Shown here piece by piece: positions 1 through 63,649 of a stretch of 64,000 nucleotides of DNA (its first letter is position 1; the number at the start of each line of letters is the position of its first letter). Under the pieces are notes generated by a model. That model was given only the letters and a program-made list of their open reading frames with translations. It did no database searches and had not been told where the DNA came from. The DNA is from an uncultured Spirochaetaceae bacterium (GTDB lineage Bacteria; Spirochaetota; Spirochaetia; Sphaerochaetales; Sphaerochaetaceae): the NCBI GenBank assembly GCA_944392935.1, contig CALXYI010000032.1, positions 132-64,131 on the forward strand. The letters run 5' to 3'. A program made the position numbers and the translations under genes.

Positions 1-511
1 AGAAGAATTGATGTCTGGCATCAACAGGTATACAGAAGCATTGGATCTTCTTGATGATTATGATCATCAATGTATGAAAAGACCGGAAGGGAGCAAGAAT
101 TATGTTCCAATCAGCTATGATGAGTGCAAAACGATAATCAATTCGATGAAGTTTACCCTTTCTTCGGATGTTTTCGGTACTGAGAAGACAGAAGGTGCGT
201 TAGAAGGTATTCTTGGATCTGTCTACCAAACCGCATTTGGACAGGATGTTTATCCTACAGTGGAAGAAAAAGCGGCCTCTTTATTGTATTTTCTTGTGAA
301 GGATCATCCGTTCAATGATGGTTGCAAGAGAATTGGCGCTACGTTGTTTCTTGCATTTCTCCAGAAGAATAGAATGTTATTTACCTCAGCAGGCAAGCAG
401 GTGATTTCCAATGGAGCTCTAGTTGCAATAACGCTGATGATTGCGGAATCAAGACCGGAGGAGAAGGATATTATGGCCACTTTGGTTATGAACCTTCTAA
501 CAAACAGATAA
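1..511 (+). CDS. Fic/DOC (RhuM/Fic/DOC-type) family protein, C-terminal part; 5' end probably outside the window
   Basis: The frame is open back to position 2, with no stop upstream of the listed TTG/ATG at 8-13. It carries a Fic/Doc-type active-site motif, HPFNDGCKRIGATLF (compare HxFx[DE]GN[GK]R; Asn replaced by Cys). GC is about 37-40%, unlike the rest of the window. Confidence 0.7.
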   Translation, partial: EELMSGINRYTEALDLLDDYDHQCMKRPEGSKNYVPISYDECKTIINSMKFTLSSDVFGTEKTEGALEGILGSVYQTAFGQDVYPTVEEKAASLLYFLVKDHPFNDGCKRIGATLFLAFLQKNRMLFTSAGKQVISNGALVAITLMIAESRPEEKDIMATLVMNLLTNR

Positions 512-1373: not shown

Positions 1374-1445
1374 TGGGCGCGATTGGGATTGAACCAACGA
1401 CCCCTACCGTGTGAAGGTAATGCTCTCCCGCTGAGCTACGCGCCC
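1374..1445 (-). tRNA. tRNA-Val (anticodon CAC)
   Basis: The reverse complement GGGCGCGTAGCTCAGCGGGAGAGCATTACCTTCACACGGTAGGGGTCGTTGGTTCAATCCCAATCGCGCCCA folds as a cloverleaf. Acceptor GGGCGCG/CGCGCCC, anticodon stem TTACC/GGTAG, loop TTCACAC, T arm GTTGG-TTCAATC-CCAAT. CCA is not encoded. Confidence 0.9.
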
Positions 1446-1549: not shown

Positions 1550-2029
1550 CTACGAGAGATGGGTATTCCCGATACCAGCCGGATCAGTCTGAAGCTCCAT
1601 ATAGAGCAGTGGATATGGATTGCCCTGCTCATCAATCTCCGTGCGCCTGCATATATGGAAGCCCATATGCTCATAGAATCCGATTGCCTGCGGATTCTGC
1701 TCATTCACTGCCAGCCTGCGGACTCCGGATTCCTCGATGCCGTATCGCAGCAAACGCCTTCCGAGTCCTTTGCCGCGTTCCTTCGGTGCAATGAACAGCA
1801 TTTCCAATGTACCATTCCCTGTTCCCATGAATGCAGCAGGATTGCCTCTTTCATCGACAGCTATCACCAGATCAGGAACATCCATGAGGGCCTGCGGGAC
1901 GTATTCCTTTATCTTCAGGATCTCGCTATCAGACAAGAACAGGTGAGTGGCTCTCACTGAAGCCTCCCAGACTGCAAGCAGCTGCCCGATGAGTTCCGGA
2001 GTCCTTTCCTTTGCTTCCATTATCCTCAT
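1550..2029 (-). CDS. GNAT family acetyltransferase, YjaB-like
   Basis: ORF 1550..2080, with the start moved to the ATG at 2029 (MRIMEAKERTPE...). It is collinear with YjaB-type GNATs: WEASVRATHLFLS, LFIAPKERGKGLGRRLL, VNEQNPQAIGFYEHMGF, GNPYPLL. Confidence 0.8.
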   Translation of the reverse strand: MRIMEAKERTPELIGQLLAVWEASVRATHLFLSDSEILKIKEYVPQALMDVPDLVIAVDERGNPAAFMGTGNGTLEMLFIAPKERGKGLGRRLLRYGIEESGVRRLAVNEQNPQAIGFYEHMGFHICRRTEIDEQGNPYPLLYMELQTDPAGIGNTHLS

Positions 2030-2307
2030 GCAGATAGTGTAGACGAACACGTCTGCGAGTAGAAGGGGCAGGAAGTCCAAATGCTATATCTGCAATCTCA
2101 ATCCCGTATAAACCATATGCTTCATCATCTGGGAAGAAGCACATCCGGCATGAATGCTTTTGCAGTTATTGTCTTTGCATAATTTTGGATTATATTCCGA
2201 AATCACAATTATAATCTGAATCATAATTATTTTTTATTCTTGCAAACCTGCTTCATCGGGAATTCTCCGATGGATTTCCCTCATATTCCCCTGATAGCCT
2301 TCTCCTC

Positions 2308-2335
2308 TTGCAAATCTGCCCCCCCCCAGTATACT
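2308..2335 (+). promoter_or_regulatory. Putative promoter with a C9 homopolymer in the -35/-10 spacer
   Basis: TTGCAA (2308-2313), 16-nt spacer ATCTG-CCCCCCCCC-AG, TATACT (2330-2335). The C9 tract is at 2319-2327. The ATG at 2375 follows 39 nt downstream. Confidence 0.55.
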
Positions 2336-2374
2336 TGCAGCGGCACATCAAATCGAATCAGGAGGATTTGGAAA

Positions 2375-3133
2375 ATGAAATTCAGAAATGCATGTCTGCT
2401 GCTGTTGCTTCTCCCGATGATCATCGTATCCGGGATTTCCTGCAGCGATTCCGGTAATGGCGGAGCGGGCGGGGATGCCTCAGAAGCTGAGATCATCGAG
2501 GCAATCGAGGATGCCCTTGGCGGAATGAGCGTTATCCAATCTGCATTTGGCAGCAGCGGAGGAAGCATGCCCCCGTCTGGAGGAATGGCAGCTCAGCCGA
2601 AGTCCGCAGCTATCCTGGATGGAATGAACCTGTCAGACATCATCAAGGATCTGAGCAGCAAAGACGGAAGCTTCATGACTGAGCTCAATGCAGCGATAGA
2701 CAAGATGTCTCAGGGTACTGATCCAACGCCATTTACAGAGCAAACTGATTACGGTGAATTCAAAGTGAAGATGGATATGATGGCAGGGGCAACCGGAACT
2801 CAGCCTATGACTATATCCAATGTCGTCATTTCCGTAGGAGACACCCTGATGCTTGAGATACCCGACGGAACGATTTCAACTGGAAGCACCACTGTTCAGG
2901 ACTGGCATTTCCGCTATACAGACAAGAGGGAATACAGCGGATATCTTGTTGAATTCGATGCAAGGATGGAAATAACCGCATCAATGGGCCCGGATGCTTC
3001 ACCATCAGCCCCTGCAATGGAAAGCACCCTCTCGGATCTCAAGTACAAAGGAACTCCGCGTGAGGTAACGGATAACATAAACAGCGCCACTGCGGAGATG
3101 CTGGAGACGATCATTCTCGGCAAGACGAATTGA
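2375..3133 (+). CDS. Putative lipoprotein, function unknown
   Basis: ORF 2240..3133, with the start moved to ATG 2375 behind GGAGGA (2361-2366). The N-terminus MKFRNACLLLLLLPMIIVSGISC is a signal peptide with a lipobox-like Cys. The mature part is G/S/A/T/D-rich and I recognise no domain. Confidence 0.75.
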   Translation: MKFRNACLLLLLLPMIIVSGISCSDSGNGGAGGDASEAEIIEAIEDALGGMSVIQSAFGSSGGSMPPSGGMAAQPKSAAILDGMNLSDIIKDLSSKDGSFMTELNAAIDKMSQGTDPTPFTEQTDYGEFKVKMDMMAGATGTQPMTISNVVISVGDTLMLEIPDGTISTGSTTVQDWHFRYTDKREYSGYLVEFDARMEITASMGPDASPSAPAMESTLSDLKYKGTPREVTDNINSATAEMLETIILGKTN

Positions 3134-3249
3134 GACAGGACCGGAATACCTGGCAATCAAGCATGCCCCTGGACCGTTGATGTGTCTGGGGGCTTTCGTA
3201 TTAAAAAAGAGGATAGATAACAATCCGAGAGCCTTCTTATGGGTGAATC

Positions 3250-3290
3250 CCCTCCCTTTCATAATATTTCCTTCCTAAAGGGAGGGTATT
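3250..3290 (+). terminator. Hairpin after the first lipoprotein gene (probable terminator)
   Basis: Perfect 10-bp inverted repeat CCCTCCCTTT (3250-3259) / AAAGGGAGGG (3277-3286), followed by TATTTCTT. It sits immediately upstream of the next promoter. Confidence 0.5.
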
Positions 3291-3292
3291 TC

Positions 3293-3322
3293 TTGACAAG
3301 ATGCTACGGGGGGGGGTATTCT
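3293..3322 (+). promoter_or_regulatory. Putative promoter with a G9 homopolymer in the -35/-10 spacer
   Basis: TTGACA (3293-3298), 18-nt spacer AGATGCTAC-GGGGGGGGG, TATTCT (3317-3322). The G9 tract at 3308-3316 abuts the -10 element. The ATG at 3356 follows 33 nt downstream. Confidence 0.55.
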
Positions 3323-3355
3323 TACTTCAGATTTCAATATCTGGAGGATTTGAAA

Positions 3356-4096
3356 ATGAAGAAAATTCTTATGGTTCTTCTTGCTGCTATGGTCGTATTC
3401 GGCTTCACAGCATGTGATGAAAGCACACCGGCTCCAAGTGACGTGAAGACATCTGAAGTTGTTGCTTATTTCAACAACTTCGCAACAAAGCATATCTTCG
3501 GAGAGATCAACACTGCACTTAATGCAGAAAACAAGTCTACGGATGAGATAAGCAATCTTTCAGCTGTTTTTACAGAGGCTGTTACAGATGATCCGGATAC
3601 AGATGATGTAAATGAGGCGGCTCCTGCGAAAATCGTGTTCACCTATACTGCAACGGACATGAGGTACAATGGAGAGATTGAAGAGGGTGGTACAGATAAG
3701 ACCAACCATCGTCTTGTCAATGGAAACATAACCCTTACAGTAACTGGTACAGTTTCTGGCGAGACTAAATTCACCGCTAAGGATTTTACATTTGCCGGTA
3801 CGGACCTCAGGCTCACCGATGCCCAGACTGGAAAGGATTATGAAACACTTCCTGTCCTGACTGTCGATATCAAGGATTTCGCAGTTGATTTCGTAGCAGG
3901 CAAGGAAGCAGATATCACGCTTGAGAAGGAGGGTACGGGGGATGATGCTGTGCTAGCTCCTGTAGCTATTGAGGAACTTAAGGCGAATTCAGCTGATCTT
4001 GCTCAGGCTACTGGCAGCGTTGTCGTGAAGCCGAACAACATCTCATATGATTTCTCTCAGATAGTCGCGCTCATTGCGGCTGCACAGCAGCAGTGA
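3356..4096 (+). CDS. Putative lipoprotein, function unknown
   Basis: ORF 3239..4096, with the start moved to ATG 3356 behind GGAGGA (3343-3348). The N-terminus MKKILMVLLAAMVVFGFTAC is a signal peptide plus lipobox Cys. The mature part is T/D/E-rich, and GC is about 43-48%, lower than neighbouring core genes. Confidence 0.8.
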   Translation: MKKILMVLLAAMVVFGFTACDESTPAPSDVKTSEVVAYFNNFATKHIFGEINTALNAENKSTDEISNLSAVFTEAVTDDPDTDDVNEAAPAKIVFTYTATDMRYNGEIEEGGTDKTNHRLVNGNITLTVTGTVSGETKFTAKDFTFAGTDLRLTDAQTGKDYETLPVLTVDIKDFAVDFVAGKEADITLEKEGTGDDAVLAPVAIEELKANSADLAQATGSVVVKPNNISYDFSQIVALIAAAQQQ

Positions 4097-4121
4097 CTGC
4101 TGGCTGAGTGATTTCAGCGAT

Positions 4122-4149
4122 AAGGCCTCTCCGCACGGGGAGGCCTTTT
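4122..4149 (+). terminator. Rho-independent terminator
   Basis: 11-bp stem AAGGCCTCTCC / GGGGAGGCCTT (one G-U pair), loop GCAC, followed by TTTT. It lies 26 nt after the lipoprotein stop. Confidence 0.7.
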
Positions 4150-4169
4150 GAGAAAGCTGGGGAGTGTGC

Positions 4170-4370
4170 ATGGACGGAGTGAAGATGCGAAGGACACGCG
4201 TTCCTCAGGATAAGCGGATCGAGTGCCTCCAGTACTTCAAGGGCGGGCATGGATACAAGTTCGCTGCCAGCAGGACTGGGCTGAGCCGCTATACTGTCAG
4301 GGATTACCTCAGGAGCTATAAGGCCGGGGATATCACCTGGGCAGAACGCGAGGATATCTATCAGAAGTGA
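4170..4370 (+). CDS. Small helix-turn-helix protein (transposase-type HTH-like), possibly an orphan remnant
   Basis: About 66 aa. RIECLQYFKGGHGYKFAASRTGLSRYTVRDYLRSY looks like the N-terminal HTH of IS-family transposases or resolvase-like proteins. GGAG lies 6 nt upstream of ATG 4170. There is no catalytic domain downstream. Confidence 0.45.
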   Translation: MDGVKMRRTRVPQDKRIECLQYFKGGHGYKFAASRTGLSRYTVRDYLRSYKAGDITWAEREDIYQK

Positions 4371-4404
4371 GAGGCTTCCATGCGGGAGCCTCTCATATCA
4401 TAAT

Positions 4405-4911
4405 ATGGACATGAGGATTTCACTGGTATGCTGGAGCCTTACCGGGCATACGGCCGAGATGGCCGGAGAGATCGGGAAGGGAATCGAGGAAGCTGGGGCG
4501 GAGTACCGTATCTTCAACCTGAGGGAAGGGGAGGCAGACGCGGAATATGTCTCGTCTTCGTCCGGGCTCATCATAGGCACTCCTGTCTATCTTGCTTCCG
4601 GCGTGTGGCAGATACATAAATGGCTTGGTGAGGATTCTGCCGGAATCAATCTGTCAGGCAAGCTCGGCGGTGCGTTCGCAACGGCGCATTTCGCCCAGGG
4701 CGGTGCTGATACCGCCATCATGGATATCCTTGGCATGATGCTTGTCAAGGGAATGCTCGTTTACTCCGGCGGCGGGAGCTATGGGCTCCCATTCATCCAT
4801 CATGGGCCTGTCGCCCTGGACAAGGTCGGCGATCATTATGATGAGAGCCGCAGTGCGTTCCGCATCTTCGGATCACGCTTCGCGGGCAAGGCAAGGGAAC
4901 TCTTCAGCTGA
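4405..4911 (+). CDS. Flavodoxin family protein
   Basis: N-terminal FMN-phosphate loop WSLTGHTAEMA and the typical flavodoxin-like layout (IIGTPVY..., GGAFATA...). 168 aa. Confidence 0.8.
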   Translation: MDMRISLVCWSLTGHTAEMAGEIGKGIEEAGAEYRIFNLREGEADAEYVSSSSGLIIGTPVYLASGVWQIHKWLGEDSAGINLSGKLGGAFATAHFAQGGADTAIMDILGMMLVKGMLVYSGGGSYGLPFIHHGPVALDKVGDHYDESRSAFRIFGSRFAGKARELFS

Positions 4912-37914: not shown

Positions 37915-39621
37915 ATGAAATTCAAACCATCAGAGCCCTGGCGCTTCCTTGACGCATACAGGGGGAAGGAATTCCAGGGTGAGTGGCCGAATGTGAAGGA
38001 GACGTTCCATATCTCCGCACTGAGGTATCCTGACAATCTCTGCTTCCGCGCATTCTCTCCGAAGGAGGAGTCATTCACCTACAGCGAGGCAGAGAGGAAG
38101 ATAAGGGAAGTATCGTACTGCCTTATGTCCACAGGTGTCAGGAAAGGCGACAGGATCGCTGTATCAGGGAAGAACAGCCCGGAATGGGCGATTGCATATC
38201 TTGGTATCATCTATGCCGGGGCAACTGTTGTTCCGCTTGATTACTCCCTTAATGATGCTGAGATGGAGAGACTCATCGCCTTTGGCGGAGTCTCCCGTCT
38301 CTTCATCGACAAGGAGCGTCTCGGAAGGATCCAGGGCGGCCTTTCCGCCGTCTATTCCCTCGAGCCCGGTGCCGATGTCCCGTTCGTCCTCGATATGACA
38401 GGGCCGGAGGCTGAATGCGAGAGGGCAGAGGGCAGCGATATCGCCGCGATACTCTTCACTTCCGGAACCACCGGCACGCCGAAGGGCGTCATGCTCACGC
38501 ATGACAACCTCATCTCCGACTGCTATCTTGCGCAGGGCAATATGAACATCTTCTCCACGGATGTCTTCTATGCGATCCTCCCGATACATCATGCATATAC
38601 CATGCTTGCCGTCTTCTTCGAGGCATTCTCCGTGGGAGCCGCGACCGTATTCGGGAAGAAGCTCGTTGTGTCGCAGATACTCAGGGAGCTCAAGGATGGG
38701 CATGTGACGATGTTCCTCGCTGTCCCGATGCTCTTCAACAAGATGATAGCCGCGCTCATGGCAGGAGTCAGGAAGAAGGGGGCTGCTGTCTATGGCCTGG
38801 TAAGGGCGATGATGAGCTTCTCCGGCTTCGTGAAGAAGGTCTTCGGTGTGAACATCGGCAAGAGGATGTTCGGCTTCCTGCTGCGCAACCTGTCCCTTGA
38901 GGACAACAGGATATGCATCTGCGGCGGCGGCCCGCTTCCATCCTCCACATTCAGGATGTTCAATGAGCTCGGCATAGATTTCGTGCAGGGCTATGGGCTT
39001 ACGGAGACCTCTCCCATAACCCATCTCAATCCTGTCGAGGCGTATATCGAGACGTCGGTAGGGCGGAGGATACCCGGATGCGATGTGAGGATCGTCGATC
39101 CGGACAGCGACGGGAACGGCCTGATATACATCAAGGGCCCCATGGTCATGAAGGGCTACTACAACAACCCTGAGGCTACGGAGGAGATACTCTCCGATGA
39201 CGGATGGCTCAATACCGGCGATGTGGGGCATCAGGACGAGGACGGATATCTCTACCTTACAGGGCGGGCGAAGAGCGTGATCGTCACGGAAGGCGGCAAG
39301 AACGTCTTCCCTGAGGAGATAGAGGATCATTTCCAGCTCTATGATGATATAGACCAGGTGTGCATCATCGGCTATACCGCCGACAAGGCGCTGAGAAGCG
39401 AGGGGATAAGGGCGATCATCCTGCCATCGCAGGGCTATCTGAAGAAGGAGAGCGATGAAGCTGCTGTCGAGAAGCACATGAATGATATCGTCGCAGAGGT
39501 CAACAGGGAGCTCCAGAGCTATAAGAAGATAACCCGTGTGACCGTTGCCGATCATCCGATGCCGATGACGAGCACCAAGAAGATAAAGCGTTTCGAGGTC
39601 ATAGCCGAGTACGGCGACTGA
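37915..39621 (+). CDS. AMP-dependent synthetase / long-chain-fatty-acid--CoA ligase
   Basis: AMP-binding motif LFTSGTTGTPKGV, GYGLTETS, and a C-terminal KKIKRF-type end. Confidence 0.9.
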   Translation: MKFKPSEPWRFLDAYRGKEFQGEWPNVKETFHISALRYPDNLCFRAFSPKEESFTYSEAERKIREVSYCLMSTGVRKGDRIAVSGKNSPEWAIAYLGIIYAGATVVPLDYSLNDAEMERLIAFGGVSRLFIDKERLGRIQGGLSAVYSLEPGADVPFVLDMTGPEAECERAEGSDIAAILFTSGTTGTPKGVMLTHDNLISDCYLAQGNMNIFSTDVFYAILPIHHAYTMLAVFFEAFSVGAATVFGKKLVVSQILRELKDGHVTMFLAVPMLFNKMIAALMAGVRKKGAAVYGLVRAMMSFSGFVKKVFGVNIGKRMFGFLLRNLSLEDNRICICGGGPLPSSTFRMFNELGIDFVQGYGLTETSPITHLNPVEAYIETSVGRRIPGCDVRIVDPDSDGNGLIYIKGPMVMKGYYNNPEATEEILSDDGWLNTGDVGHQDEDGYLYLTGRAKSVIVTEGGKNVFPEEIEDHFQLYDDIDQVCIIGYTADKALRSEGIRAIILPSQGYLKKESDEAAVEKHMNDIVAEVNRELQSYKKITRVTVADHPMPMTSTKKIKRFEVIAEYGD

Positions 39622-39682
39622 TCAGGGGGGGCGGGAATCCGGCCTCTTGCCTTTATATTCCATCATGCGTATCTTTCAGGAT

Positions 39683-63515: not shown

Positions 63516-63597
63516 GCGGTCGTGGTGGAATTGGTAGACACGCTAGCTTGAGGTGCTAGTGGCGAGAGCTGTGCTGGTTCAAGTCCAGTCGACCGCA
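63516..63597 (+). tRNA. tRNA-Leu (anticodon GAG)
   Basis: GCGGTCGTGGTGGAATTGGTAGACACGCTAGCTTGAGGTGCTAGTGGCGAGAGCTGTGCTGGTTCAAGTCCAGTCGACCGCA. Acceptor GCGGTCG/CGACCGC, anticodon stem CTAGC/GCTAG, loop TTGAGGT, long variable arm, T loop TTCAAGT. CCA is not encoded. Confidence 0.9.
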
Positions 63598-63611: not shown

Positions 63612-63649
63612 CCTTCTGGCTTCCATACTTGGTCAGAAGGTTTTTTTTT
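63612..63649 (+). terminator. Rho-independent terminator of tRNA-Leu
   Basis: CCTTCTG-(15-nt loop)-CAGAAGG followed by T9. Confidence 0.8.

Follow-up and report, generated by a model that had tools for sequence, protein, structure and literature searches.

The closest described counterpart of the locus analysed here is tp0126 of Treponema pallidum, a gene for an OmpW homologue that carries a poly-G tract between the −35 and −10 elements of a sigma-70-type promoter (Giacani et al. 2015, as cited in PMC7864442). According to PMC7864442, transcription of tp0126 is optimal at a spacing of 17 nt, and the original annotation is described as a longer open reading frame that ran through the tract and left the signal peptide buried. 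The porA gene of Neisseria meningitidis likewise has a poly-G tract in its spacer and, according to the same article, shows graded expression by tract length with an optimum at 17 nt, tract lengths of 9–11 giving spacers of 15–17 nt (PMC7864442). Other T. pallidum genes, tprE/G/J and tprL, have poly-G tracts of 7–11 nt that vary in vivo, those of ≤8 being the more active in the account given there (PMC7864442). For tprL most molecules carry nine G residues, while eight are more active; the authors have its tract overlapping the −10 region in part and rule out a spacing mechanism (PMC7864442).

The locus described here lies in DNA of an uncultured spirochaete, within a stretch of 64,000 nt that is referred to below as the window and whose first letter is position 1. 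A run of nine G residues directly abuts the −10 hexamer of a predicted promoter, and we consider it likely that this tract serves as a contingency switch of the simple-sequence-repeat kind, located in a sigma-70-type promoter spacer and acting through the −35/−10 spacing. Analysed in this way, the locus is most likely a switch of a known type, that of porA and tp0126, and its mechanism would not be new. With tp0126 it has in common its occurrence in a spirochaete, a poly-G tract in what is here a predicted spacer, a gene for an envelope protein and a probably false longer reading frame, here a call of 285 amino acids. The two differ in their products, an OmpW barrel there and an unrelated lipoprotein here, the latter from another, uncultured organism and read from sequence alone; they also differ in that the present locus has a second, apparently independently switchable C9 promoter directly upstream, together with a hypervariable structural gene. 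A homopolymeric G tract in the −35/−10 spacer, here a predicted one, is shared with porA as well, which is a proteobacterial porin gene, whereas tracts of 9–11 correspond to 18–20 nt here; the sampled alleles are therefore on the long side of the optimum. In contrast to tprL, the tract lies cleanly between the hexamers. In full-text literature searches, promoter poly-G switching in spirochaetes was discussed only for T. pallidum.

The two hexamers, the 18 nt spacer and the G9 run abutting the −10 hexamer had been picked out in the original prediction, with coordinates that we find to be exact to the base. The promoter and the gene that it is predicted to serve are laid out as follows.

3250–3286, + strand: terminator-like hairpin, perfect 10 bp stem (CCCTCCCTTT/AAAGGGAGGG), 17 nt loop, then TATTTCTT
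3293–3298, + strand: −35 hexamer TTGACA, 6/6 consensus, unchanged in all ten related contigs
3299–3316, + strand: spacer, 18 nt, consisting of AGATGCTAC and G9
3308–3316, + strand: G9 homopolymer, the putative mutable element, directly abutting the −10 hexamer
3317–3322, + strand: −10 hexamer TATTCT, 4/6 consensus, with A2 and T6 present
3329–3330, + strand: predicted transcription start, placed 7–8 nt past the −10 hexamer by standard sigma-70 geometry
3343–3348, + strand: ribosome-binding site GGAGGA, 7 nt ahead of ATG 3356
3356–4096, + strand: lipoprotein gene, 246 amino acids, ATG at 3356, stop codon at 4094–4096
4122–4152, + strand: intrinsic terminator, 11 bp G+C-rich stem and T run

A consensus scan of positions 2000–4400 returned TTGACA-18-TATTCT as the top promoter-like site, with agreement at 10/12 hexamer positions. 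Four promoter-like matches were observed in the scanned region against 3.3 expected in shuffled sequence, and because such matches are no commoner than in shuffles the hexamer match by itself proves little. The placement of the G9 tract in the spacer of the promoter that drives gene 3356–4096 is thus a prediction by consensus. The 5′ UTR of this gene is short, with the ribosome-binding site as its sole element, and an Rfam search of the locus matched no RNA family. The ribosome-binding regions ahead of both lipoprotein genes (2357–2374 and 3339–3356) form an 18 nt near-repeat, ATCwGGAGGATTTGrAAA.

The hairpin upstream of the −35 hexamer plausibly ends the transcript of the preceding lipoprotein gene (2375–3133) and would thereby shield gene 3356–4096 from read-through. 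We rate it only as a plausible terminator because it is not more stable than shuffled sequences (z = −0.79). The terminator that follows the gene is strong, with −31.4 kcal/mol over a 71 nt stretch (z = −3.07). Bounded by these two elements, gene 3356–4096 therefore looks monocistronic and served by the G9 promoter alone.

A different role for the tract is suggested by the way in which gene callers annotated the public G9 contigs (P0010), as follows.

3239–4096, + strand: open reading frame of 285 amino acids from ATG 3239, its extension reading MGESPPFHNISFLK..., in frame only if the number of G residues is a multiple of three

On this basis the tract could be a translational frameshift switch within the longer reading frame, which we consider very unlikely. 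ATG 3239 has no ribosome-binding site, whereas ATG 3356 is preceded by GGAGGA at a distance of 7 nt; with the extension the signal peptide would come to lie inside the protein, and the extension overlaps the terminator-like hairpin; alleles of a second clade (see below) have no in-frame upstream start; and the equivalent mis-annotation of tp0126 was corrected experimentally (PMC7864442). The 285-residue frame is probably an annotation artefact, seen only with G numbers that leave the frame uninterrupted. Phase variation within the coding region was likewise rejected, the ribosome-binding site and the signal peptide placing the start at 3356, 40 nt downstream of the tract.

The tract is conspicuous in itself. 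In a run census of the 64 kb, only two G/C runs of ≥8 were found, C9 at 2319–2327 and G9 at 3308–3316; the next longest are G7 and C5, in a window with a G+C content of 55.8%. Markov models of order 2–4, trained with both tracts masked, give analytic expectations of 0.03–0.13 G9 words and 0.001–0.06 C9 words per 64 kb. Both tracts occupy promoter-like spacers 33–39 nt before the start codons of lipoprotein genes on the same strand, while the positions that place a 9-mer wholly within a promoter-like spacer amount to 0.83% at ≥9/12 hexamer matches and 0.12% at ≥10/12. The G9 run also lies in the range of about 8 nt or more in which tracts are prone to slippage. Two other runs in the window, G7 at 39625–39631 (4 nt past the stop of the acyl-CoA ligase reading frame 37915–39621) and T9 at 63641–63649 (44 nt downstream of tRNA-Leu 63516–63597), would be of use for gauging homopolymer error in reads from within the same sequence.

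Contigs with genes for the same protein or for related ones were collected from ENA, Logan and NCBI. All comparative data come from these three sources because scans of JGI metagenomes for the promoter pattern TTGACAAGATGCTAC-N4-16-TATTCTTACTTCAG and for the protein family gave no matches. The window-type promoter set contains ten sequences including the window, all with identical hexamers, and the tract lengths are distributed as follows.

G9, spacer 18 nt: window, L002, L009, L010, L014, L017
G10, spacer 19 nt: L001, L006
G11, spacer 20 nt: L016
L015 (NCBI MAG contig, GCA_944389275.1): ends inside the tract, after the fourth G

Three further contigs (L011, L012 and L013) were left out because they are chimeric scaffolds, with foreign DNA of low G+C content attached within the locus. 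These are ENA scaffolds of samples ERZ16268134 and ERZ16268162; the chimeric switch occurs at the hairpin in L013, at about window position 3275, and inside the lipoprotein gene in L011 and L012.

The original prediction named a tract of uniform length as the outcome that would speak against it; we find G9, G10 and G11 beside the same hexamers. Along 3,977 nt of downstream flank, L006 departs from the window by 0.4% substitutions and no indel, yet it has G10 where the window has G9. Strains that are >99.5% identical to the window (L009 and L010) have the same G9. In region 3276–3394, which comprises the promoter, the 5′ UTR and the signal peptide, the only other strain differences are a SNP in the spacer (L017) and an extra T upstream of the −35 hexamer (at the L016 contig end). 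In this alignment the critical promoter positions are conserved, and what varies is the G tract. Contig L001 begins 54 nt ahead of the tract and contig L016 stops 22 nt past it; a single sample yielded both, the former with G10 and the latter with G11. Such clustering of contig ends at the tract, to which L015 also belongs, is circumstantial evidence, being the behaviour expected of assembly under within-sample length heterogeneity.

The differences between lengths 9, 10 and 11 rest on metagenome assemblies, one of them at about 2× coverage, and for the G11 allele, so close to a contig end with an extra T, a contig-end error is possible. It could accordingly be argued that the tract is static and has no role in switching, its length differences being assembly or sequencing errors or neutral drift, the more so as the closest relatives of the window are unchanged and further 1 nt indels separate strains in nearby intergenic DNA. 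We consider this improbable. G8 in the second clade (L004 and L005) and C9 in the upstream promoter (L013 and L014) were each reproduced by independent assemblers, and the G tract is the sole length-variable site, in three of nine contigs, amid roughly 120 identical nucleotides. The 64 kb contain no other G/C runs of >7, both of those present being located in lipoprotein promoters, and the run is kept in a homologue of 61% identity, although decay is what one would expect of a neutral homopolymer.

This homologue belongs to a second clade, with 61% protein identity and different neighbouring genes, in which the tract again directly abuts a −10 box, here TATTAT. The MAG that contains it is labelled 'uncultured Spirochaetales bacterium'. 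The tracts of this clade are as follows.

G8: L004 and L005, two assemblers in agreement
G9: L003
G10: L007

That a long homopolymer is kept across this divergence and in different genomic contexts argues for its upkeep by selection. The −35 side is less uniform. L004 has TTGACT at a spacing of 19 nt, and no convincing −35 box was found in L003 and L007 at any spacing of 14–22 nt, the best match being 3/6. About 35 nt just upstream of the G tract are wholly different between L004 and L003/L007, and the sequences are identical from the tract onward. As judged from this alignment, the second-clade G tract marks a boundary of recombination or replacement.

In the switch mechanism that we propose, slipped-strand mispairing at replication would add G residues to the tract or remove them. 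The number of G residues would set the distance between TTGACA and TATTCT, with G8 giving 17 nt, G9 18 nt, G10 19 nt and G11 20 nt, and the change in spacing would alter the binding of RNA polymerase and consequently the transcription of the monocistronic gene for the acidic lipoprotein. Activity is predicted to be highest with G8, intermediate with G9 as in the window, and low or off with G10 and G11. The idea that loss of one G leads to a 17 nt spacer was part of the original prediction, and the arithmetic holds on the 18 nt spacer. The upstream lipoprotein gene would be switched independently by its C tract, where C8, C9 and C10 correspond to 15, 16 and 17 nt. With two independent tract switches, a clonal population could therefore show at least four combinations of both proteins. 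As parts of this model we infer length-dependent expression, reversibility within a clone, the position of the transcription start and exposure of the product at the surface.

None of the sampled alleles is at the predicted 17 nt optimum: those of the window type have 18–20 nt and L004 has 19 nt. Moreover, the lack of a convincing −35 box in L003 and L007 makes it hard to see how these two alleles would fit a model based purely on spacer length. On one view, most of the sampled populations express the gene weakly, much as nine G residues and not the more active eight prevail in tprL; on the other, part of the effect of the tract comes from something other than spacing. The tract might be a true switch that operates through DNA structure or open-complex formation beside the −10 hexamer, or through the binding of a regulator. 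The feature common to the clades is indeed a G run directly abutting TATTxT and not a −35 box, no sampled spacer has 17 nt, and a mechanism of this kind is discussed for T. pallidum tprL, in which the poly-G tract overlaps the −10 region (PMC7864442). We nevertheless consider this chief mechanistic alternative unlikely, since the window-type promoter has a perfect TTGACA at 18 nt that is unchanged in ten contigs, L004 also retains a −35 box, and control by spacer length, which experiments have established for tp0126 and porA (PMC7864442), is the most economical interpretation. A G-quadruplex was considered as well; no upstream G-runs common to all alleles were evident in the inspected upstream sequences.

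The product that would be controlled by spacer length is a lipoprotein that begins MKKILMVLLAAMVVFGFTA|C, with a signal peptide at residues 1–19 and a lipobox whose Cys20 has its codon at 3413–3415. Signal peptide and lipobox are common to all relatives. Beyond the cysteine the protein is acidic, with a pI of 4.2 and contents of D 9.7%, E 7.5% and T 12.4% in the mature part, and with Cys20 in the lipobox and D, E and T together close to 30% the product is the lipoprotein with a T/D/E-rich mature region that had been anticipated. The richest D/T block, at about 3575–3625, is specific to the window allele. Pfam and NCBIfam contain no family for this protein. The AlphaFold2 model is of moderate quality (pLDDT 61, pTM 0.61) and consists of an N-terminal helix followed by a long antiparallel β-sheet; comparison of this model with folds in the PDB gave nothing significant (best E value 0.38). 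When 1.84 billion representative proteins were searched with a profile, only 31 relatives were retrieved at E ≤ 0.001. Judged by these searches, the product belongs to a small, lineage-restricted lipoprotein family.

The mature region is exceptionally divergent between strains. The hypervariable segment and the substitution rates, with dN and dS calculated according to Nei–Gojobori, are given below.

3395–4132, + strand: hypervariable segment (mature lipoprotein and 3′ end), delimited by sliding identity and BLAST, flanks 97–100% identical
Lipoprotein gene 3356–4096, window versus L001/L002: dS 0.07–0.11, dN 0.07–0.09, dN/dS 0.8–0.9
Six neighbouring genes, window versus L001/L002: dS ≤0.03, dN ≤0.003

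The divergence of the mature region is 10–30 times that of the neighbours. In L006 the mature region is unalignable at the DNA level and has 49% protein identity. This pattern is what allele exchange, diversifying selection or both would leave in a protein that is presumed to be exposed at the surface. The lipobox Cys20 and the divergence hot spot mark an envelope-type product under variable selection, and a hypervariable product fits the type of gene that is usually put under a stochastic switch.

About 1 kb upstream is the parallel C9 promoter that the original prediction had ahead of another lipoprotein gene, and which was recovered by the run census and the consensus scan.

2308–2335, + strand: companion promoter TTGCAA-16-TATACT, with C9 (2319–2327) within the spacer
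2375–3133, + strand: upstream lipoprotein gene, no family match

The C tract also differs in length: L017 has C8, and six contigs have C9. Between the C tract and its −10 box stand two bases, which read AG in some strains and GG in others. The −35 region of this promoter (TCTTGCAAAyCTGC, 2306–2319) has a copy 68 nt upstream (2238–2251) that is not followed by a C tract, and an 11 nt indel at 2274–2284, between the two copies, separates strains and is absent in L006 and L015. No homology between the two adjacent lipoproteins was detected by BLASTP (E value 0.06).

The vlp genes of Mycoplasma hyorhinis are adjacent lipoprotein genes, each with its own poly-A tract in the promoter spacer, such that their ON and OFF states combine. 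They have a conserved 5′ region and prolipoprotein signal peptide, and their divergent mature regions vary via internal tandem repeats. The present locus resembles them in that both predicted promoter spacers contain a homopolymer and that mature regions diverge behind a signal peptide that is conserved. It differs in that the tracts are poly-G and poly-C as opposed to poly-A, in that tandem repeats like those of vlp are not seen, and in belonging to an unrelated phylum.

The opposite strand orientation of the two tracts raises the question of whether C9 and G9 act as inverted repeats that invert the intervening 1 kb segment with the upstream lipoprotein gene and so uncouple both promoters. 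The tracts are part of a 12 nt inverted repeat (CCCCCCCCAGTA / TACGGGGGGGGG) with 92% complementarity, and a small helix-turn-helix protein is encoded downstream. The four contigs found to cover both tracts (L006, L014, L016 and L017) nevertheless all have the orientation of the window, no recombinase is encoded nearby, and complementarity between C9 and G9 is a trivial outcome of having two such homopolymers. We regard inversion as extremely improbable. An invertible promoter was also rejected as a candidate on the same single orientation and missing recombinase, the sole inverted repeats being the hairpin and the trivial C9/G9 pair.

Understood as a spacer-length switch, the locus suggests that uncultured relatives known solely from metagenomes use a poly-G device of the T. 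pallidum type. It singles out two adjacent uncharacterized lipoproteins that are likely to be variable components of the surface, serving for instance as targets of host antibodies or phages. In practical terms, the tract flags a site of metagenome assembly breaks and of false 285-residue reading-frame calls, and it would allow phase variation to be tested in a simple way on reads that already exist.

A broader reading, which we put forward tentatively and regard as doubtful, is that a small lipoprotein family restricted to uncultured Spirochaetales carries a heritable poly-G 'cassette' fused to the −10 box. Such a cassette would outlast replacement of the −35 region and would be combined with allele exchange in the mature region and with a second switched neighbour gene. 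Its switch may use a mechanism beyond simple spacer length, because all sampled alleles are at 18–20 nt. If true, a spirochaete that is not a pathogen, although probably associated with a host, would possess a contingency-locus system.

The surroundings of the two lipoprotein genes have several features of their own. Directly past the terminator of gene 3356–4096, a protein of 66 amino acids is encoded at 4170–4370 that has only a transposase-like helix-turn-helix, with weak matches to HTH_23/28/29, and that is 100% conserved across all syntenic contigs. In L001 a 31 nt deletion (window 4568–4598) within the flavodoxin-like gene 4405–4911 breaks the reading frame. On the other side, L015 carries ISL3-family and Y1 transposases at its positions 284–1645, which join the window at about 1199, beside tRNA-Val (window 1374–1445). 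By these transposases, the region upstream of the lipoprotein genes is marked as a variable segment adjacent to a tRNA gene. Genes for a Doc/Fic-type toxin and GNAT proteins are found nearby, at window positions 8–511, 531–1067 and 1550–2080.
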